DNA from: an uncultured virus (IMG/VR IMGVR_UViG_3300037466_002408)
Lineage: Duplodnaviria > Heunggongvirae > Uroviricota > Caudoviricetes
Virus record (IMG/VR): IMGVR_UViG_3300037466_002408
DNA: 36,293 bases
Strand: one strand, 5' to 3'
Within the stretch, counting starts at the first letter, position 1; every line of letters starts with the position of its first letter. Below, piece by piece: positions 14,150 through 36,293 of the stretch. A program made the translations under genes and the position numbers. The notes below the pieces were generated by a model. That model ran no database searches. It had not been told where the DNA came from and was given only the letters and a program-made list of their open reading frames with translations.

Positions 14150-14205
14150 TTTCGTTTCACTCCCACATAAACAATGCAGCATTACGGACACATTTACGTT
14201 ATTAA
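14134..14205 (+). pseudogene. Orphaned dnaE 5' end (MQETLISFHSH plus 12 unrelated residues)
   Basis: AGAAGGA RBS; 10 residues after Met identical to DnaE residues 3-12 at 14827-14856. Confidence 0.85.
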
Positions 14206-14824
14206 AAACGCCATCACTGGAATGCAATACGTAGGTCAAACAACTCAAGATATCTACGTAAGGTGGCGAAATCACAACAGCGATCATTCTAGATGCCCAT
14301 ATTTATTTTCGGCATTGAAAAAATATGGACGCGAAAGCTTCATATTGACAATTGTTGATTATGCTGAAAACAAAGAAGAGTTGGATGACGCGGAAATTTA
14401 TTGGGTTCGTAAATTGAACACTATGGCCCCAAATGGGTACAATGTAAAAGAACCAGGCGGCACCAGGGGCAAGCTACAGCAAGAATCTAAAGATAAAGTT
14501 GCTAAATCAAAACGCGCCACACTGAGCCGCAAGGAATTTAAAACATCGAAATATAAAGGTGTTGGATACTCAAAACAAAAAGGCAAATTCAGGTGCGCTC
14601 TTTGGATTGGTAAAAAGATTGTTGTCGAATTATATTTTGAATCTGAAGAAGTTGCAGCTAAAGTTTATGACTATTTTGCTTTTACGAACGATTCAGATTC
14701 CTATTTGAACTTTCCAAATGAAGTTTTAAGTGGCTATCAAGTTACAGAAATAATTAACAACGAATACAAAGACAAAAAGATAAAGCCTAAAATTCTTGAA
14801 AAGCTAATTGGAGAATTCTTTTGA
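14174..14824 (+). mobile_element. Free-standing GIY-YIG homing endonuclease with C-terminal AP2-like DNA-binding domain
   Basis: HIY-10aa-YVG, R..NH, E..W, NGYN; SKYKGV...FESEEVAAKVYD. Confidence 0.9.
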
Positions 14825-17800
14825 GTCAAGAAACTTTAATTTCCTTCCATTCGCATACTTCGTTGTCTTATCAAGATGCCCTCTCAACGCCAGAGGATCT
14901 AATTCATTATGCGAAACTGTACAACGCCCCTAGTCTCGCTGTCAGCGATCACCATAACCTTTGCGCGTGGCCGAAATTCTACAATCTAGCTAAAAAGGCA
15001 GGTATCAAGCCCATCGCATCTTGCGAAATGTATTTCCAATGGCACGATAAGCGTGATTCTGACAAGTCCTCCTACCATCTTCTTCTCACCGTAAAGAACG
15101 AGGCCGGTTGGCGTAATCTGCTCAAGCTGATGTATCTCTCCAACATTCCGGTGGCTGATGGCGGCGGTTTTTATTATCGCCCCCGAATCACCGAGAAGAT
15201 GTTGTACGCGCACAAAGAAGGACTTATTGTGTCCTCAGCCTGCGTGTCTGGTCCCATCGCCAAGCCTTTGTTAGCTGGCAATGAAATGGAAGCCCGCATG
15301 ATTGCTGAGGACTTCCGCAATAACCTCGATGATTTCTTTATTGAGATTATGCCTCACCGCTTGGAGATCCAGAGCAAGGTTAATTCTAAGTTGGTCAAGC
15401 TTGGTAAAGATATGGGCATTCCTGTTATCACCACGCTGGACATTCACTTTGCCGATTCCAGTTATGAGGATGCTTACCTTTGCAATGGCGATATTCGCCG
15501 CAATCGAACTATCACTGAGCGCAATAACCCTCAATCTGATTGTCTGCGTGACCCTGATTTCTATTATAAGTCAATCGCGGAAATCTATGATGTGTTTGAT
15601 GGTCACGGCATTACTAAGAGTGACATTCGTGAGTCAATCGCTAACACTGTGCTGATTGATAACATGATTGACTTCTCTTGGCAGAATAACCATTTTGCCC
15701 AACCTAAATACTCAGATGATGCCGACCGCCAACTAGAACTACTTCTCGCCAAAAAGATTCGTGAGAAGTTCGGCTCAAGCATTCCTCAAGAATATAAGGA
15801 TCGTACTCGCTATGAATTCAACGTTATTCGTGATATGGGATTTTCTAACTACTTCCTTATCCTTAATGATGCAATTGATTTCTGTGGCCGTGAGCGTATT
15901 AATGTTGGCCCTGGTCGCGGTTCTGCCGCTTCTTCCCTTCTGCTTTGGTTGCTCGGAATCACGAACCTAGACCCGCTTAAGTACAATTTGCCGTTTGAGC
16001 GATTCTTGAATAAGGACCGCACCGGTACCGTTCCTGATGTTGACGTTGACCTTGATTCTGATGGTCGTGAAAAACTAATCACTTACCTCAAGTCCCGTTG
16101 GGGCGAGAAGCATGTTGTGCAGTTGATTAACTACTCTCAGATGAAGCCCAAAGCGGCAATTTCCGATGCCGGTAAGTGGCTTGAGGTTGACTTCAAGGAA
16201 GTTAAGAACATCACTGCTGCTATTCCTGCCAAGGGTTATGACGAGGATGGTAATGCCTTTGAGCTGCCTTGGGATGACGTAATTAAGGTGCCTCAGGTTC
16301 AGAAATACATTGACCAGTACCCGCGACTGTTTGAGGTTGCTGGCAAGTTGGTGGGCTCATATCGCCAGCCCAACGTCCATGCTGGTGCCGTCTGTATCCT
16401 CCCTGAGCCTGCTGACGAGATTATTCCCGTTATGCAGAAGCGAGGCGACCAAGGTGCTGATTGCCTTATCTCCCAGTGGGATAAGAAAATGTCGGAGTTG
16501 GTTGGCGTCCACAAGTATGACTTCCTCGGCCTTTCAACTCTCAAGGTGCTGAAGGAATGCGAGGATATGACTGGCGTGGGCCTGCATACCATTGACTTAG
16601 AGAACCCGGCCACTTGGCGTTACTTCCAAGAGGGTAAGCACATGCTGGGTATTTTCCAGTTCATGGAGGATAAGACTCGCTCTTTCCTGCGGCAAATTAA
16701 GCCTGAGCGCCTACAAGATTTGTCGGACGTTAACACCCTGATTCGTCCCGGTGCTGACTCTGACTTGTATTTGAAGAATCGCAAATCCAAAATGATTGAA
16801 TACAAGTTTGATTTGCCGGAAGTCAAAGAGGAATTGAAGAATTCATACGGCGCTATTATTTACCAAGAGAACATCATGAACCTGGCTAACAAACTGGCTG
16901 ATTTCACGTTGGGCGAAGGCGATATGTTGCGTCGTGCATTGGAGAAAAACGATGCTGGCAAAATCGCCAAGTACAAAGAGAAATTCGTCTCGACTTGCAA
17001 ATACCCTGATATTGCTAATGACCTATTTGATTGGATTGGCGCTAACGCCGCTTATCTGTTTAATAAGTCACATGCACTTACTTACTCGCTAATTGGTTTC
17101 TGGTGCGCTTACTACAAGGCGAATTTCCCTCATCAATTCCTTGTGGCTAATTTGCGCCACCCCAAGTCCAGCCAAAAGTTATCCGAGCCTGAGTACATCG
17201 CCAACTTCATCCAGGAGGCGAAAGAAATGGGCATCAGCGTAGAATTACCTCGTCTGGGTAAGGCGTATGCTCTTCCGACTTATGACCCTATCTCCGAGAC
17301 TGTTTACTATGGCCTCGTTGGCATTAAGGGTATTTCTGAGAATTCTGCATACCCCCTGTCGCTCAATTCTGAGACTAACTTCGCGGATTTTGTGACAAAA
17401 TCTCTGGAAATCAAAAAGGAATACATCAACAACGGCAAAACCTCACTGCGGCCTGTTATTAACAAGGGTCACATCAAACGGCTTTGTCTGCTTGGATTCT
17501 TTGGAGATCCCGGCGAATACCTCAAAAAATACGAGGAGTATTTCAAGGAAAAAGAAGAAATTGAATTCACGGATTACGAAGACGCAGTTAATGACGCTGT
17601 TGGTTTCAGTTGGTTTTCGCCGCTAACAAAATACGAAGCGAGACTTCCTGAAAAATACAACGAAAAAGACCGCTATGTTATTATGAAAATCACGTATGTT
17701 AAAAAGGGAAATACAAGAGGACGTGATTGGACAATGATTAAAGGGGCCACAAACCACATGGGAGATACAACGGCTTTTCTCTCTCTTTTGGCGGATATTA

Positions 17801-17886
17801 AAAAGGGCGATGTTATTCTGTGCAAATACAAGAGGGGTCGAAACGCGGACTCCATCAGCATTGAGGACTGGAAGCTCCTGGACTGA
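14821..17886 (+). CDS. dnaE: DNA polymerase III alpha subunit (family C) with PHP domain
   Basis: PHP HSH, SDH, SAC..G, DIH; GPGRGSAA, FERFLN, PDVDVD, KYDFLGL, YQE, FNKSH. Confidence 0.97.
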   Translation: MSQETLISFHSHTSLSYQDALSTPEDLIHYAKLYNAPSLAVSDHHNLCAWPKFYNLAKKAGIKPIASCEMYFQWHDKRDSDKSSYHLLLTVKNEAGWRNLLKLMYLSNIPVADGGGFYYRPRITEKMLYAHKEGLIVSSACVSGPIAKPLLAGNEMEARMIAEDFRNNLDDFFIEIMPHRLEIQSKVNSKLVKLGKDMGIPVITTLDIHFADSSYEDAYLCNGDIRRNRTITERNNPQSDCLRDPDFYYKSIAEIYDVFDGHGITKSDIRESIANTVLIDNMIDFSWQNNHFAQPKYSDDADRQLELLLAKKIREKFGSSIPQEYKDRTRYEFNVIRDMGFSNYFLILNDAIDFCGRERINVGPGRGSAASSLLLWLLGITNLDPLKYNLPFERFLNKDRTGTVPDVDVDLDSDGREKLITYLKSRWGEKHVVQLINYSQMKPKAAISDAGKWLEVDFKEVKNITAAIPAKGYDEDGNAFELPWDDVIKVPQVQKYIDQYPRLFEVAGKLVGSYRQPNVHAGAVCILPEPADEIIPVMQKRGDQGADCLISQWDKKMSELVGVHKYDFLGLSTLKVLKECEDMTGVGLHTIDLENPATWRYFQEGKHMLGIFQFMEDKTRSFLRQIKPERLQDLSDVNTLIRPGADSDLYLKNRKSKMIEYKFDLPEVKEELKNSYGAIIYQENIMNLANKLADFTLGEGDMLRRALEKNDAGKIAKYKEKFVSTCKYPDIANDLFDWIGANAAYLFNKSHALTYSLIGFWCAYYKANFPHQFLVANLRHPKSSQKLSEPEYIANFIQEAKEMGISVELPRLGKAYALPTYDPISETVYYGLVGIKGISENSAYPLSLNSETNFADFVTKSLEIKKEYINNGKTSLRPVINKGHIKRLCLLGFFGDPGEYLKKYEEYFKEKEEIEFTDYEDAVNDAVGFSWFSPLTKYEARLPEKYNEKDRYVIMKITYVKKGNTRGRDWTMIKGATNHMGDTTAFLSLLADIKKGDVILCKYKRGRNADSISIEDWKLLD

Positions 17887-23678: not shown

Positions 23679-24224
23679 ATGACTACCAAGACCAACAAGA
23701 CCAGCACTGTTAACACCAACAAGGGCAAGGGTAAGGACGACAACACCTTCCAGGCCAACATGCCCTCTGAGGATGATATGGTCAACATGCTCAAGACCCT
23801 TATCGCCAACGCCGAGAAGGAAATCACCGAGAGTGTGAAAACTCTTGAGGGCATCACCGCTGAGATTGACGAGAAGCAGGCCGAGATCAAGACGCTGCGC
23901 ACTCAGCAGGACGATCTCACCGCTCAGGTTCGCCCCACGCAGCGCAAGATCAATAACTGGAAGGCTGCGCTTGCTGACCTTGAGAAGCCGACTGATGTGG
24001 GCACGACTGGCGGCAACCGTGCTGGTGCTGGCCGTCCTCCTGTCACCACGCTGCCTAACTGGCTCACTGGCCTGCCAGATGAGTTCACGGCTGATGACGT
24101 TGCCAACACTCACAACATGCCCCGTTCGTCGGTTCTCACGTACCTGTCTCGTTACTCCAAGGATGGCCGCTTCATCGAGCGTGTCAGCACCGGCACCTAT
24201 CGCCTTCTGGCTGCCAACAGCTAA
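23679..24224 (+). CDS. Coiled-coil plus winged-HTH DNA-binding protein
   Basis: Long heptad region, GGNRAGAGRP linker, FTADDVA...IERVSTGTYRL wing. Confidence 0.75.
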   Translation: MTTKTNKTSTVNTNKGKGKDDNTFQANMPSEDDMVNMLKTLIANAEKEITESVKTLEGITAEIDEKQAEIKTLRTQQDDLTAQVRPTQRKINNWKAALADLEKPTDVGTTGGNRAGAGRPPVTTLPNWLTGLPDEFTADDVANTHNMPRSSVLTYLSRYSKDGRFIERVSTGTYRLLAANS

Positions 24225-29859: not shown

Positions 29860-30370
29860 TACCCCCTAGGCCCTAAATTGTGCGCATGACCCGCACTATT
29901 GGATCGAAATTTGAGAAAAAAGATTGGAGCGATTGTGTTAAATATCAAAATGTACAACAGAAAGAATGTGCCAGAATTAGTAAATGAAATGACTGTTGAT
30001 ATGTCAATGGACGAAATCTATAATTTATTGGTTGCAACTTATAAAGCAGAGAATAGGCTTGAATGGTCACACAGAGGATTTAACAACTGTGCAATTGTCA
30101 CCGCAGGGCTTACGATTTCTCTCAACAAAATATTTAACTGACAAACCACAATCTTTTTAAGGCCAATGGGAATTTTCCTAACGGCCTTTTTCTTTTTTTA
30201 TTGGCGGCTTTCCAAAACCAACCGGCTTTCTTATACGGGAAAACTTTCGAACTCTTTTAAAATCCGCCCTGACACTACAACACGCACACTGCTTTACGAG
30301 AGAATTTTGTTGGGCCGGTTTTTTCTGCGCAATTCCCCATGCGGGGGTGCCAGTTCGGCCTACGTAGTTG

Positions 30371-30553
30371 TAAACAATTGTAACATGTTACAAAACTTCA
30401 TAAACAAATGTGAAGCTTCACAGAACTTTACAAAGAAATGTTAAGCGTTATAAAACTTCATTACAGATTATGAACCGTTACAAAACTTAATGATGAATTG
30501 TTAAGCGTTACTTTCCGTAATGAAGAAATGTAACGGGCAATAGAACTTTACAT
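30371..30553. repeat. Six degenerate 30-bp tandem repeats with 10-bp sub-period
   Basis: Units align without gaps; approximate consensus taaagaaatg-ttaagcgtta-caaaacttca. Confidence 0.85.
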
Positions 30554-30671: not shown

Positions 30672-30700
30672 AAAAAAATGACCCCTCTTGCGAGGGGTCA
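30672..30700 (-). terminator. Intrinsic terminator
   Basis: TGACCCCTC-GCAA-GAGGGGTCA followed by T7 on minus strand. Confidence 0.92.
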
Positions 30701-30706
30701 ATCGTT

Positions 30707-30934
30707 CTACCCGTTGGGCACTAGGCGCATGGCCTGCTCCCATTCGTCCATGTCACCGCGCATGGTCCCGTCATCACGCCAGATCGCCGCCTGGTATCGG
30801 CCCGGTTCGATCTGGTAGATCCCGACGATCGATTGCTTGCGACCTGTGAACTCACAGGCCCTAGCGTCATCCAAAATACGGATGATCTCAATCGCCATGC
30901 CGTTGACCGTTTGCGTCATTCCAATTTTGAACAT
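30707..30934 (-). CDS. 75-aa hypothetical protein (monocistronic)
   Basis: GGAGGT RBS, own promoter and terminator. Confidence 0.8.
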   Translation of the reverse strand: MFKIGMTQTVNGMAIEIIRILDDARACEFTGRKQSIVGIYQIEPGRYQAAIWRDDGTMRGDMDEWEQAMRLVPNG

Positions 30935-30970
30935 TTGTTACCTCCAAATGTCGTTAGTGGATGGGCGAGC

Positions 30971-31038
30971 TATTCAGTTTTCAATGTGCGTTCCTTTGAG
31001 TACACAACTATTATCTCATGACACATAACATGTGTCAA
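30971..31038 (-). promoter_or_regulatory. Leftward promoter with overlapping palindrome and boxA-like element
   Basis: TTGACA-17 nt-GATAAT; palindrome TGACACAT-N3-ATGTGTCA; GCACATTGAAAACTGAATA downstream. Confidence 0.75.
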
Positions 31039-31596
31039 CCGATTTGATGTCATACGATGACATTTTTATTAGTCGATTTTTGTTACTTCATATGAGTGCA
31101 TGACACTCAATTACGAGCCGGTCATGCACTGACGTTAAAATCCCGGCGCATCAAAGAGTCATCATGCCTGTAGCTAAAAACGAACCGAACAGAAAAATAT
31201 CATTAATGCATGAGTGTCATCATGTCGGTTCATGCCGTGCGAATTACTCATGCATGCGAATTAACACACTAGTCGATTTTTACATATAAGCTGATTAACA
31301 CCACTCACTAAAAGTAAGCGCCCAAACGTCCTATTCATACCGATTTCGCCTAGAATGCCTGTTAATCAAGGGGGGTAGGGTGGTAGGACGTTGGATATCT
31401 ATCAGCTGTTATTTGCCCTCCTAGGGGCCTTAAACGCGATATTCCAAGATAACCGATTGGTTGATTTCTGGATTTTGCCTCTTAACAGGTTTGAACTACG
31501 TTCAAACGACATGCGACGCCCATACATGACACGCGCGCATGTACATGCGTACATGCGCCCTGCATTGCCTCGCCAACAAAAACCCTGATCTGGCAT

Positions 31597-31706
31597 TTGT
31601 AACGAATTGTTTAGATAATGTTGTTAGAGGCATTTTTTTTCGGAATCGTGGTATAACTAACTAGGGTTAAATTTTCGAGCCCCAAACGAACTTTCCCAAC
31701 TGAATA
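31597..31706 (+). promoter_or_regulatory. Rightward extended -10 promoter with boxA-like element
   Basis: TGGTATAAC at ~31649-31657; GAACTTTCCCAACTGAATA at 31688-31706; reverse tandem box at ~31597-31614. Confidence 0.6.
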
Positions 31707-31723
31707 ACACCGCTCAAAACACA

Positions 31724-32067
31724 CGGTTAGGGACTTTCCGATAAACAAGCCGTATCGCCTAGCAAATTGGGGGCAATCCTCCAAAAGCACTGATAGACGG
31801 ATAACCAATGTTTCCCTAGCTTGCGATTCAGTCGCTACGGTCATTTGAGGGCGCTTGAAACGATACCCCTCTGATGGATTGCCATCAGAGCATGGTCGAG
31901 TCCCTAAGGGATAGCAAGCTCAAAAGGCAGACAGAATCAAAGGTTAGAGGATAGGAATGAGGTCATTTGTCCGGCCGATTCTACTGTGTGCTTTGAGCAA
32001 ACGGATTAAAGCGTGTTACCTTGACGCTTTTGGGAAACTGAAAGCGTCAAATGTAGCACACTAGCCG
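31724..32067 (+). ncRNA. Candidate large structured RNA or leader, family unknown
   Basis: Multiple nested helices including 31727-35/31899-907, 31869-90, 31918-38/31977-98 and 32013-59 with GAAA loop. Confidence 0.7.
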
Positions 32068-32085
32068 ATTAGAGGAGACTAACAC

Positions 32086-32313
32086 ATGTTGCTTCCCTTG
32101 TTTGGTTCTAACCATCCGATTGCGCGCTCGATTAGCGCGATTCTGGCGATCCTGTTGATGACGCTTGCTATCTATCAAGTGTCTGTCATTCCGCCCGATG
32201 CGCCGATCTTCGCCTCCATCCCTAATATCCTGTTGGGCGGATCGTACCTGCTTATGTCGTTCCTGATTCCGTTTCCCTTTGCTTACCACGCTCTGAAAGG
32301 ACGGATTGTTTAA
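32086..32313 (+). CDS. Two-TM membrane protein
   Basis: GAGGAG RBS; hydrophobic helices. Confidence 0.75.
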   Translation: MLLPLFGSNHPIARSISAILAILLMTLAIYQVSVIPPDAPIFASIPNILLGGSYLLMSFLIPFPFAYHALKGRIV

Positions 32314-32442
32314 ATGCCGCGTCGCTACATTATCAGCGGGAACACTGCCCGCTAGAAACGAGGTTAATTCAATGATTCAAATCGTGCTTACCTGCATCGC
32401 CGTTACTGTCTCGTTTATCGCTCGCTGAAAGGCTGGAATCCC

Positions 32443-34071
32443 ATGAACTGGAAAGCTAATTACCCCGCTCTGATTTCTGAGGCCGCACACTTCGTCGATC
32501 TGATTTCGGCCCTTGAAAACACCAATGACAACAAGAGCGAAAAATTCAGCTCGCTTGATAACGTGGTGAACATTCCCGAAGAGTTTGACATCGACATGGA
32601 TCAGTTTCAACGTCTGTTCAATCGCGCCTGGGAAGCCAAAAAACTCATGGCGCATGCGCTTGGCTTGGGCGCTGATTATCGCCGGTTCATGACTGTGGAA
32701 GATCCCGACATGATCAAATCCGAGATGCTTTTTCAGAATGTGCGCGCAGCTTATTGCCGTGCTTTGAATTGGGATGCGGATTTGACGCCCGTTGACGTTG
32801 TGACTGGCACGATCAAGGACAAGCATGGTCGCGATGTTCGCTTGTCCCGTGTTTTGTCTCGCACCTTGCCCGATGGCATCCCGTGCGGCTGGCACTCTCC
32901 GACCTATGCCGATGGCTGCAACGATTGTCTTAAGAAGGACAAAGCGATTTCGGATTTGTTCGATCTGGCGAAAAATGCCAAGCGGACGATCATGATTTCC
33001 TGCAATCCATTCGATATCTGGACTCAGAGTTTTAATGCCGGTTTCCGTTCTTGCCATGCGCCCAATGGCATTCATGCGGCTGGCTCTTTGGCCTACTCGA
33101 TCGACGGTGTTTCGTTCGTTTGCGCCGTGGTGGACACGGATCGCCAGTTTGGTCACATCCCTTACAAGCATGGTCGCCGCATGGGCTTCCTGTCCGAATG
33201 CCGCATGCATCTGGTGATCGGCCGTAAATACGGCAATTTCCATGACACGCTCTGTAAGCCGATCACAGGCGCTCTCACTTCCTCGATCACTGTTACTATG
33301 GGCTTCGGCGCCAAGGAATGGATCGGCACTTCCAAGAATTTCCCTAATTTGAATGTTCGCGGTGAAGGCCCGGTTTACTTTGACTACGGGATCGGGCGCT
33401 ATTCTCGCATCAGCACTCGAAAGAAGGGCGATTTCACGATCAAGCTTGCAGCCGAGGTTCCCTGTCTTTCGTGCGGTAAGGACCATTCCACCGAAGACGC
33501 TTGGGTGTGTGAAGATTGCCATGATGATTCCGATTCTTGGCACTGTGCCGACTGTGGCGAACGCCGCACCGATGATCCTGATAATTACTCGAACGATAGC
33601 GGCGATCCCGTTTGCTATCACTGCGCGCGCAATTATCACAATTGTGAAGAATGCAACGAACGCATGCATGAAAACAATTCGTTCTATGTCACCAACATGG
33701 GTAATCTGTGCCGTTCCTGTTATGACGACTTGCCGACTTGTGACCGTTGCGGTGATCATCGGATGGAAGGTGACTTGCGCGATATGCCCGATGATCAGTC
33801 ATGGTGCAATTCGTGCGAACGTCGCTATTGGGTGGATTGTCATGATTGCGGCGAAGATGGGGCCGGGGATTCGCAACACATGAACCGGGTACGTGTTCCT
33901 GTCATTGGTCGCTATGGCTCTGTAACCGTTTACGTTTGCGATTGCTGTAACAACAAGCGGATCGAGGCGGAAAGGGAACGACAAGAGCGGATCGAAGCGG
34001 ATCGGATCTCTCAAGAAATCGCCGAAATCCACGCATCCATCATGCCAACCGAATTGGCCGTCTATCGATAG
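32443..34071 (+). CDS. 542-aa hypothetical protein with C-terminal tandem CxxC zinc-ribbon repeats
   Basis: About 10 CxxC pairs in the C-terminal third; SCH motif in the N-terminal domain. Confidence 0.85.
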   Translation: MNWKANYPALISEAAHFVDLISALENTNDNKSEKFSSLDNVVNIPEEFDIDMDQFQRLFNRAWEAKKLMAHALGLGADYRRFMTVEDPDMIKSEMLFQNVRAAYCRALNWDADLTPVDVVTGTIKDKHGRDVRLSRVLSRTLPDGIPCGWHSPTYADGCNDCLKKDKAISDLFDLAKNAKRTIMISCNPFDIWTQSFNAGFRSCHAPNGIHAAGSLAYSIDGVSFVCAVVDTDRQFGHIPYKHGRRMGFLSECRMHLVIGRKYGNFHDTLCKPITGALTSSITVTMGFGAKEWIGTSKNFPNLNVRGEGPVYFDYGIGRYSRISTRKKGDFTIKLAAEVPCLSCGKDHSTEDAWVCEDCHDDSDSWHCADCGERRTDDPDNYSNDSGDPVCYHCARNYHNCEECNERMHENNSFYVTNMGNLCRSCYDDLPTCDRCGDHRMEGDLRDMPDDQSWCNSCERRYWVDCHDCGEDGAGDSQHMNRVRVPVIGRYGSVTVYVCDCCNNKRIEAERERQERIEADRISQEIAEIHASIMPTELAVYR

Positions 34072-34322
34072 CTCATTCTAGGTACATAGGAAGCCCATAG
34101 AGGCCAGTTGATCAGTTGCCCTGTGTGATTGGTCAATTGGCCTCATTTGAAAGCGATGGAACTCTATATGCGATTGCTCAAATTGTCTGGTGTTTGCATC
34201 GAACGTCACAACAAAGGATTTGCCATGCTTGGCACTAACAACCATGGCCGATGGATTGGGCGTTTCTTTATCGTTGTTCGTCAGTGTCCCATTGTTCGTT
34301 TGTCAAAGGACTGGAGTTAGTC

Positions 34323-34568
34323 ATGCGTTTCATTCTGTTTCCGATCATTTTGGCCGCTCTTGTTGGCTTCAATCTGGATACCATCAAGGCCCAATCATTC
34401 CGCGCCATTGTCGCGAGCTTGCCGACCATTCACGCTGGAAAAAATGCCGACTTGAAAATCGAGACAGACACGATCCAGGTATACCGAGACAATCGAACCG
34501 GCGATCCCTTCTATGCCTTTGAAATTAATGGGCGCTGGATTGACGCCCAAACAGGCGAGGAATTTTAG
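34323..34568 (+). CDS. Exported or membrane-anchored small protein
   Basis: GGAG RBS; MRFILFPIILAALVGF signal-like start. Confidence 0.7.
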   Translation: MRFILFPIILAALVGFNLDTIKAQSFRAIVASLPTIHAGKNADLKIETDTIQVYRDNRTGDPFYAFEINGRWIDAQTGEEF

Positions 34569-34570
34569 AC

Positions 34571-34876
34571 ATGCCGGGAGTTTTGTTTTTGCGATTTGTT
34601 GGCGTTTTCAATACCGGCATAGATCGGCATGTGTTCCCTATTTGTGACGCTTTCAGTTTTTCGGCAAGTTACAAAGGTAAGCAAGTAATTATTCCTGTGT
34701 CATCCGTTAATCCAAACTCGCAACAATGGGTTTTTGCCGATTTAGATACATATGCCAAATTGCCCATTTGCTCATTTGCCGGATGGCTGGATCATCCTTA
34801 TGGCACGTCATACCCCGATCCCCAATCGGTTTTAGAGGCTGACAAACGCATGCGTCAATTCAAAGAAGGGAGATAA
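34571..34876 (+). CDS. Hypothetical protein
   Basis: GAGGA RBS. Confidence 0.7.
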   Translation: MPGVLFLRFVGVFNTGIDRHVFPICDAFSFSASYKGKQVIIPVSSVNPNSQQWVFADLDTYAKLPICSFAGWLDHPYGTSYPDPQSVLEADKRMRQFKEGR

Positions 34877-34878
34877 CC

Positions 34879-35013
34879 ATGCGCAACTTCTACATTCCGA
34901 CCTCTTATTCCCCGAACATCTTTGGAATCCGTTTTTGCTGGAAGGTTATACAGGTTCATACTCTTTCCGCATGCATTTGTACGTTTAAGCTCAACGCTCC
35001 AAAGAGGAATTAG
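34879..35013 (+). CDS. Mini-gene cassette 1 (44 aa, MRNFYIP...)
   Basis: Read manually; AGGGAG RBS. Confidence 0.65.
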   Translation: MRNFYIPTSYSPNIFGIRFCWKVIQVHTLSACICTFKLNAPKRN

Positions 35014-35015
35014 CC

Positions 35016-35150
35016 ATGCGCCGTACCTACATTATTCCTGTTAACTCAAACAAGGAAATTAAAGGTTCTCATTTGCTCGAAAACATTATCGTTGCTAAGT
35101 ATCTTAATGTAGCAATATGGCTTGTAAAAGCATCTATCAAAAGGTCATAA
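35016..35150 (+). CDS. Mini-gene cassette 2 (44 aa, MRRTYIIP...)
   Basis: Read manually; GAGGA RBS. Confidence 0.65.
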   Translation: MRRTYIIPVNSNKEIKGSHLLENIIVAKYLNVAIWLVKASIKRS

Positions 35151-35152
35151 CC

Positions 35153-35290
35153 ATGCGCCGATACTACATTCCCCTATCGCCTGAATTAGAATTCATTGTT
35201 TGGCTACATGGTAGTAAATTTGGAAAGAACTACATGGCAAACATTGGTGTTCGTGGTGCAATGGCCGTCATTCTCTTTCCGTTGCCGTAA
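35153..35290 (+). CDS. Mini-gene cassette 3 (45 aa, MRRYYIP...)
   Basis: Read manually; AAGGT RBS. Confidence 0.65.
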   Translation: MRRYYIPLSPELEFIVWLHGSKFGKNYMANIGVRGAMAVILFPLP

Positions 35291-35977
35291 AGCTAAGTCA
35301 CACTAATAAATCGCCCTAAAGCAAAGGCAATCAATCAATGAATACAAGCTGAATATATCAATCAATAGAGGGAGAGTATAGAGAATGAATATAGATACAA
35401 GCTGAAACCAAATACAGACATAGGAAACAAGGAAGGAATGAAACAAGAATGTGTTTACTCGTTTGTGTGCCCTGTGCCTCTGGTTTTCTTGGGTAGTTCC
35501 TGCCCACCAACAACAATCAAAACCGACAACAACAATCCCCAATAACATCTTCAATTCTAATGTCATACGACACTACAACGACAACAACAAATAACATCAA
35601 TATGCCCCCCTGGTTAACAAAAGTTTAACTTGGCTGTTGGGGAGTGGCGAGGCACCCAAAGGATATATATCAAAATTCATAACCGCATCACATTAACTGC
35701 AAACGCCCACCACAACTGTATAAACAGCAATATCTGAAACAGAAGATTAGAAACAAGAGAGTCTGAAACAGCAGCCTTGGCGATTTTATGCTCACAAAAC
35801 AAAACAACCTCAAATAAAGGCTATAGTGGGTTTACGAGATTTCACCCCCAAATAACTGCCCATAAAAATCATGAAAAGGGAATTCTCAACCGTATCACAT
35901 AAAATAAAACCCGCTCTACAAGCGGTTTAGATACCTCTCGGACCCCTATAAAATACAAATGATTTTGATGTTTGTAC

Positions 35978-36006
35978 AAAAAAAACGCCCCCTAATAAGG
36001 GAGCGT
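35978..36006 (-). terminator. Intrinsic terminator
   Basis: ACGCTCCCT...GGGGGCGT followed by T8 on minus strand. Confidence 0.75.
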
Positions 36007-36010
36007 GTGT

Positions 36011-36241
36011 TTACCAGTTGGTTATTGCTTGTAGTAGTTTTCTCTTAATGGCTGACTTGAGTTGTTTGTGTCTTGGGCGAATATCTCTCACGTCTTCTCG
36101 TATTGTGTATCCTGTTAATCCTTGACATACAAATATGTAACGAGGGTATCCTATTTCATCAAAGATGTTGTCGTCTATGGCGATTTCCTTACCTCTAAAG
36201 TCTGGGTATTCCTCGCCCGTATATACTGCTTGTATAATCAT
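36011..36241 (-). CDS. Hypothetical protein
   Basis: GGAGGA RBS; ends at terminator. Confidence 0.75.
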   Translation of the reverse strand: MIIQAVYTGEEYPDFRGKEIAIDDNIFDEIGYPRYIFVCQGLTGYTIREDVRDIRPRHKQLKSAIKRKLLQAITNW

Positions 36242-36293
36242 ACTTCCTCCCCTTAATTAAGAGGGACACTATCTCGTTAACACCTACTGGCGT

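Follow-up and report, generated by a model that had tools for sequence, protein, structure and literature searches.

A strongly folding phage RNA element of no known class, tentatively a structured 5' leader

Positions 31660-32085 of a phage DNA contain an element that folds as + strand RNA much better than shuffled sequence. The observation holds up and has strong statistical support, and the element matches no known RNA class. It possibly serves a new rightward transcription unit as a structured 5' leader with a role in RNA stability, processing or translation, and this is the explanation that we favor, tentatively and with less than even confidence. The window, meaning the whole 36,293-nt stretch that was analyzed (IMG/VR record IMGVR_UViG_3300037466_002408), is from a soil or rhizosphere phage. 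The stretch occurs in public sequencing runs of soil and rhizosphere metagenomes. One contig that carries it has a length of 98,194 nt, so the window belongs to a contig of at least 98 kb. Pfam searches on 12 window ORFs between 25895 and 36241 and PHROGs searches on 40 window ORFs identify a section of a phage replication module. The module encodes a ribonucleotide reductase, a dUTPase, a DnaB-like helicase, a primase, a dCMP deaminase, an SNF2-type helicase and a DUF932 protein along with the DnaE-type polymerase. The coordinates of the features are collected in Table 1.

Table 1. Positions of genes, signals and helices in the window.
Feature	Position	Strand	Remarks
DnaE-type polymerase	14821-17886		Window replication module
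Six 30-bp tandem iterons	30371-30550		Five listed by the tool plus the unit 30491-30520
Terminator of the 75-aa gene	30700-30679	-	9 bp; scan
75-aa gene	30707-30934	-	Good RBS; divergent from the next unit
Promoter of the 75-aa gene, TTGACA-17-GATAAT	31038-31010	-	Consensus scan
Sigma-70-like promoter candidate, CTGGCA-18-GATAAT	31590-31619	+	9/12 in consensus scan
Extended -10-like TGGTATAAC	31649-31657	+	Sole exact copy in the window
Long-range closing helix	31712-27/31983-98	+	14/15 positions paired, 1 G-U; P ~0.72
CGGTTAG/CTAGCCG pair	31724-30/32061-67	+	Sequence
9-bp helix of the initial annotation, TTAGGGACT/AGTCCCTAA	31727-35/31899-907	+	Perfect complement
Hairpin TTGGGGG-CAAT-CCTCCAA	31767-84	+	7 bp, CAAU loop; P 0.96; alone z -1.74
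Hairpin CTCTGATGG-ATTG-CCATCAGAG	31869-90	+	9 perfect bp, AUUG loop; P 0.99
35-aa ORF	31957-32064	+	GAGGA 5 nt before ATG; overlaps the 3' third of the element
Extended GAAA-tetraloop (terminal) hairpin	32002-67	+	~25 bp (3+2+7+13); -30.7 kcal/mol; z -6.04
Hairpin GTGTTAC...GAAA...GTAGCAC	32013-59	+	P >=0.98
SD GAGGAG and first gene (75 aa, ATG 32086)	32072-77; gene to 32313	+	Two hydrophobic stretches
542-aa Cys-rich protein	32443-34071	+	Downstream gene in the unit led by ATG 32086

The element is preceded by a boundary between transcription units. The upstream + strand operon ends in a terminator-like hairpin (30159-30188) followed by the U tract UUUUUCUUUUUUU, the two together covering about 30159-30200. 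The iteron array that comes after it is likely an origin or a regulator-binding array. Each iteron contains a small palindrome and then AAACTTYA, and TACGTAGYTG flanks the array; the iteron words TTAAGCGTTA and GTTACAAA also occur near 38.4-38.6 kb in G002, a related phage genome. The - strand 75-aa gene had no match in Pfam or PHROG. It looks like an autoregulated small regulator, and the palindrome TGACACAT-AAC-ATGTGTCA (31019-37) overlaps the -35 of its promoter. The upstream operon's terminator-like hairpin, together with the divergent gene's own promoter and terminator, indicates that a new unit begins here. The roughly 1 kb after the - strand gene has no ORFs except short ones (41 and 65 aa), and it carries several perfect palindromes, including GTTTGAAC-TAC-GTTCAAAC (31489-507) and GCGCATGTAC-ATGC-GTACATGCGC (31535-58). 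The palindromes at 31400-31560 may be operators or a further portion of a longer leader. A 17-nt direct repeat (15/17 identical) is found at 31262-31278 and 32054-32070, and its second copy forms the terminal hairpin's 3' flank. The word TAGYCGATT, also present at 31070-31078, occurs 3 times compared to 0.46 expected, and 3 occurrences were reached in 1/100 shuffles. A promoter-like site detected by eye, TTAACA-18-TATAAG, spans the first copy of the 17-nt repeat.

Folding energies were compared to those of shuffled sequences. The initial annotation reported dense + strand pairing in 31660-32085, and the comparison agrees: the + strand RNA has an MFE of -137.6 kcal/mol (z -3.85) with 0/100 shuffles as good. 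The corresponding - strand RNA has an MFE of -129.7 kcal/mol (z -1.90) with 6/100 shuffles as good. The values for 31712-32072 are -129.4 kcal/mol (z -5.57) for the + strand RNA, -115.6 kcal/mol (z -3.88) for the - strand RNA, and -59.7 kcal/mol (z -4.30) for + ssDNA, each with 0/100 shuffles as good. The energy of this segment is 30.8 kcal/mol under the shuffle mean on the + strand compared to 20.6 kcal/mol on the - strand. Its z is the lowest among the segments tested within the window. The genome background was estimated from 50 grid windows of 360 nt with 20 shuffles each and has a mean z of -0.78 (sd 1.64). The most extreme grid window (start 7921) moved from z -5.28 with 20 shuffles to -3.76 with 100. 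The unoptimized grid window at 31681 has a z of just -2.88, the fourth lowest of the 50, which indicates that part of the 31712-32072 score is due to boundaries picked after the fold was seen. A 150-nt sliding scan of the + strand places the signal at 31800-32150 (z -3.1 to -4.3), with a weak local signal across 31550-31899 (starts 31550-31750, z +0.7 to -1.0). A separate + strand peak occurs at 31400-31549 (z -4.0, 150-nt window).

The fold is organized around a closing helix and a terminal hairpin. All of the literal helices in the initial annotation are present in the sequence where it had placed them, and the 15-bp closing helix (31712-26/31983-98), which was absent from its list, appears in both the MFE and the centroid structures. 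This helix bounds a domain of ~290 nt. By our own estimate, a helix with 13 Watson-Crick pairs and 1 G-U pair in 15 positions is expected ~0.02 times by chance in 426 nt. The hairpin at 31869-90 is a perfect inverted repeat that gives z -4.17 alone with its flanks. The two internal hairpins have apical 8-nt segments (GGCAAUCC, 31772-31779; GGAUUGCC, 31876-31883) that are exact reverse complements. These tips could form a loop-loop (kissing) contact or an alternative pairing, and we estimate the chance of two complementary tetraloops as about 1 in 256. The remaining interior helices have a P of 0.4-0.55, so the interior of the domain is ambiguous. The 9-bp helix proposed earlier has a low ensemble probability, yet it is compatible with the closing helix, on which it stacks; forcing it gives -131.4 compared to the MFE of -137.6, a cost of 6.2 kcal. 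The 80-nt irregular hairpin of the initial annotation can be located at its coordinates, but forcing its closing 7 bp (31919-25/31992-98) alone costs 15 kcal, and this pairing competes with the closing helix for 31984-98. The long-range alternative between 31724 and 32061 likewise exists in the sequence, but the constrained fold costs 9 kcal. The terminal hairpin folded alone was matched by 0/200 shuffles. Its 7+13-bp core has a P >=0.98 and it contains 3 G-U pairs on the + strand. Its 3' end stops 5 nt short of the SD, without a subsequent U tract. The well-defined helices contain 5 G-U pairs among 44 bp, all on the + strand. Perfect hairpin-type inverted repeats with arms of >=8 and loops of 3-12 number 14 in the 36.3-kb window; 2 of these are inside the element, and 6/14 fall within 30679-32050.

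The element follows the promoter-like sites at 31590-31619 and 31649-57, as the initial annotation had it. The count of promoter-like sites in the region is not above that of shuffles, and the site at 31590-31619 is therefore a promoter candidate only. The sequence TGGTATAAC matches the TGnTATAAT consensus, and its use as a -10 would put the RNA start near 31664. A simple scan, whose reach does not extend to Rho-dependent sites, detected no + strand intrinsic terminator in 31000-36293, and no terminator follows any hairpin of the element. Attenuation or antitermination would thus be without its usual platform. The boxA-like word lies in the 5' strand of the closing helix (31712-31727), and only its CGCTC core agrees with the boxA consensus. 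The GAAA hairpin is ~300 nt away from this word, which is not a nut-like arrangement.

The SD at 32072-77 has a mean unpaired value of 0.17-0.33 across seven modeled 5' ends (31080, 31627, 31664, 31700, 31900, 32000 and 32060). The SDs of 24 other genes have a median of 0.40 (range 0.08-0.80), and the SD at 32072-77 falls inside this range. Leader-dependent masking of the SD is therefore not supported; removing the leader leaves the SD just as paired. These data speak against one half of the original proposal, which was a novel phage ncRNA or an antitermination or switch leader. The element is + strand-biased, strongly folding and apparently non-coding, and it has no Rfam match. The antitermination or switch function is not supported; the simple scan gave no + strand terminator in 31000-36293, the boxA-like word is inside the closing helix, and SD occlusion is independent of the leader. 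The earlier statement that the region has no convincing ORF holds for ~290 nt (31665-31956), which lack a + strand ORF of >=30 aa, with a caveat for the 3' portion, where the 35-aa ORF exists.

The first gene of the new unit (ATG 32086) had no match in Pfam or PHROG. The 542-aa protein has 345 distant homologues at E<=1e-3 by full HMMER, the best of which is 34% identical. It had no Pfam match, none in IMG/VR, and none by word-indexed search. The family is unnamed and mostly viral, with a conserved SxNPxD...SCH...NGN motif. The AF2 model of the protein has a pLDDT of 79.7, and its C-terminus consists of tandem CxxC zinc fingers. Comparison of the model to the PDB with Foldseek gave a LIM-like zinc-finger likeness alone, which was weak (E 4e-3), and the N-terminal domain had no PDB match at E<=0.001.

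The element was compared to known RNA classes. Rfam 15 (4227 models) gave 0 matches at the gathering threshold across the whole window. At E<=10, the region 31400-32300 gave just 3 chance-level matches (mir-2002, eiav_FSE and CbSR2), far below gathering, and ARAGORN found 0 tRNA or tmRNA genes in the window. These searches agree with the initial annotation, which did not recognize the element as a tRNA, a tmRNA, RNase P, an intron or a known riboswitch. As a positive control, the Rfam library detected a group I intron (96.8 bits) and 23 tRNAs in G002, which shows that the method works on this lineage. The group I intron class was rejected for the element based on the lack of an RF00028 match and on an in-frame TAA at 32080-82 before the 32086 ATG, which precludes exon continuity. 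A lambda-type nut site, in which a short hairpin with a GNRA-like loop comes within about 10 nt of boxA, was rejected based on the presence of the boxA core only, a hairpin ~300 nt off, and no downstream terminators found. A terminator-type attenuator or riboswitch was rejected because neither a terminator with a U tract nor leader-dependent SD sequestration was found. A retron msr-msd would have flanking inverted repeats and a reverse transcriptase gene beside it; the element has a long-range helix, but no neighbor matches a reverse transcriptase (Pfam on 12 ORFs, PHROGs on 40 ORFs). The - strand word GGAAAGUCC, which resembles the RNase P CR-I motif, was dismissed because it is in the wrong position and has no Rfam match. 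An RNase III-type leader has an irregular hairpin of at least ~20 bp beside a cistron, and the hairpin at 32002-67 (~25 bp) is of this kind.

Relatives of the element were sought in several collections. The RNA element had no blastn match in 50,697 phage records (GenBank phages), and an exact 31-nt pattern from the element was not found in IMG/VR. Five public DNA runs contain the stretch, and no RNA run is among the listed holders. In the four runs examined, all pieces that span the element match the window exactly (0 other letters), which leaves no usable variation for covariation; two short pieces (35-40 nt, 6-7 differences) continue into unlike sequence. The sole true relative found is G002, a complete IMG/VR phage genome of 100,704 bp that has terminal repeats. 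Identity to the window proteins is 49% for its DnaE and 43% for its helicase, and the replication module is syntenic. The DnaE of G002 is interrupted by the group I intron (RF00028) at 23834-24121; the window DnaE (14174-17886 region) is uninterrupted and has a GIY-YIG homing-endonuclease gene (14174-14824) directly upstream. Apart from the iteron words, G002 had no counterpart of 31640-32090 by blastn, nor by nhmmer or a 287-nt covariance model (R1), which finds only itself. None of the 15 ORF-free gaps of >=250 nt in G002 has a comparable + strand-biased run. G002 holds two paralogues of the 542-aa gene, each with a short upstream gap, which indicates that the element does not travel with this gene. 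The neighboring genes differ as well, so the absence of the element from G002 is weak evidence against function.

G002 has a non-coding fold of its own, ~400 nt long and very strong, between RNase H and transglycosylase-like genes (41150-41700). The - strand gives z -7.33 and the + strand z -6.99. The fold includes an interrupted 42-bp long hairpin and terminates, on the - strand, in a 13-bp hairpin with a U tract. Neither Rfam nor a blastn search of phages gave a match to this fold, and it shows no similarity to the window.

Other genes of the window were used to look for further related loci. A DnaE alignment recovered only the window's own fragment, G002, and two matches of <=30% identity from IMG/VR, and DnaE and P0007 searches of the genome collection returned nothing. 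Among GenBank phages, DUF932 is at most 37% and DnaE about 31% identical. A metagenome scan with the DUF932 alignment gave 80 loci, none with any further gene in common with the window, and an iteron-pair pattern gave 7 IMG/VR loci, none related. Alignments of the 542-aa homologues are too divergent for finding loci. The best homologue of this protein (P0122) is not in IMG/VR, and an Enterococcus phage homologue is without an upstream non-coding region. For P0122 and for P0004, a DUF932 homologue (54% identical), the longest listed contig is 3,243 nt (Logan), and the two genes may be neighbors in a closer relative. In that case, most of the 4.1 kb that separates their counterparts in the window, with the element in it, would be an insertion.

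The favored explanation proposes the following sequence of events. The next unit would be transcribed from a promoter within ~31590-31660, or further upstream. In the RNA, the 15-bp helix would close the ~290-nt domain, whose two hairpins are very stable and whose interior is ill-defined, and the ~25-bp GAAA-capped hairpin after the domain would abut the SD of the gene at 32086. The leader would compact and protect a long untranslated 5' region. Judged by its length and by nothing else, the two-turn terminal hairpin may be a processing or stability element of the RNase III substrate type. It would set the 5' end and the translation of the first cistron. We do not think that the leader acts through terminator read-through.

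The location of the element between promoter-like sites and a strong SD and ATG, with short ORFs alone in between, argues for the leader. So do the + strand bias of the fold and of its G-U pairs, the low z set against the grid windows, the upstream signs that a new unit begins here, the strong terminal hairpin that lacks a U tract, and the failure of the scan to detect a + strand terminator in 31000-36293. Against it, the - strand and the ssDNA also fold significantly, the grid window reaches only z -2.88, the interior helices have a P of 0.4-0.55, and no homologue was found. The SD is occluded independently of the leader, and the 3' third is overlapped by a 35-aa ORF that has its own SD. Shuffles beaten by both strands and by the ssDNA are also what a DNA-level signal would give, with the inverted repeats as protein-binding or replication sites beside the iterons and the RNA fold as a by-product. 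The 6/14 perfect inverted repeats in 30679-32050, beside the iterons at 30371-30550, fit such a signal, and the palindromes at 31019-37 and 31535-58 resemble operators, one of them overlapping the -35 of the - strand promoter. We consider a DNA-level origin quite unlikely, however, given that the energy gain favors the + strand (30.8 compared to 20.6 kcal/mol) and that G-U pairs lengthen the perfect repeats on this strand only. No half-site is common to the two perfect repeats in the element, nor do they share one with the palindromes upstream, and RNA hairpins therefore fit them better than repeated operators of one protein. The long-range 15-bp helix has no obvious meaning in double-stranded DNA.

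The 35-aa ORF and its good SD also raise the idea of a spacer with one or more tiny genes and no dedicated RNA function, whose fold would be a few chance or locally selected hairpins plus the choice of boundaries. The grid-window z of just -2.88 set beside coding windows that reach -3.76, the three hairpins that hold most of the signal, and the absence of the element from G002 are consistent with a spacer. It is nevertheless unlikely in view of the z of -5.57 (0/100 shuffles), the z of -6.04 for the terminal hairpin, a closing helix expected ~0.02 times by chance in 426 nt (own estimate), and the ~290 nt (31665-31956) without a + strand ORF of >=30 aa. The element could instead be a free-standing structured ncRNA of a new family (a ribozyme, a protein scaffold or a trans-acting regulator) that is processed from the primary transcript at or near the terminal hairpin and functions independently of the downstream genes. 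The size and the 15-bp-closed domain are typical of autonomous structured RNAs, and the GAAA tetraloop on the terminal hairpin, the exactly complementary apical 8 nt of the best two hairpins, and the lack of a match among known families point in the same direction. We regard this reading as unlikely; no terminator or other defined 3' end came to light, the interior pairing is poorly defined, and the element is not conserved in G002, the only relative, and is a singleton in every searched collection. A bolder version takes the closed domain with complementary tips and the GAAA hairpin as the first known case of a new class of large, structured RNAs in phages, catalytic or protein-scaffolding rather than a passive leader. 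It would be known from one soil-phage lineage because its relatives are barely sampled, and we see it as a long shot.

The structured leader remains the preferred explanation. The evidence is thermodynamic and positional, and a structured phage leader would not surprise a specialist. If real, this leader RNA would be long and highly ordered, and it would come from a soil-phage lineage that has hardly been sampled. It would sit at the switch point from the replication module to the next transcription unit and offer a handle on how such phages time or stabilize expression. The element is now a singleton and would become a new RNA-family entry once relatives are sequenced.

The proposed leader has partial counterparts in known phages. 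The lambda pL-N leader carries nutL and an RNase III-sensitive hairpin ahead of the N ribosome-binding site. The element resembles it as a long, structured, untranslated leader that heads an early or regulatory operon, with a large hairpin right before the first SD. It differs in that there is no boxA-boxB in nut geometry, no N-like gene was recognized, and no downstream terminators were found. The leader is also about twice as long as that of lambda and forms a closed multi-helix domain, and RNase III cleavage is putative here. The T7 early region has RNase III processing hairpins (R0.3, R1.1 and others) that, like the terminal hairpin, are irregular, extend over about two helical turns without a U tract, and are located just before a cistron. 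The T7 sites are single intergenic hairpins, whereas the hairpin described here belongs to a ~360-nt folded domain and has no sequence or Rfam match to them. The HK022 put RNA, about 70 nt long, has two stem-loops, and it is the terminators downstream on which it acts. The element shares with put and other cis-acting processive antiterminator RNAs a promoter-proximal structured RNA in a phage operon, but no + strand terminator was seen in the rest of the window. The large RNAs GOLLD and ROOL, as well as group I introns, are in the same size class and also occur in phages with a replication module; the element differs from them in lacking an Rfam match at gathering or a meaningful match at E<=10.
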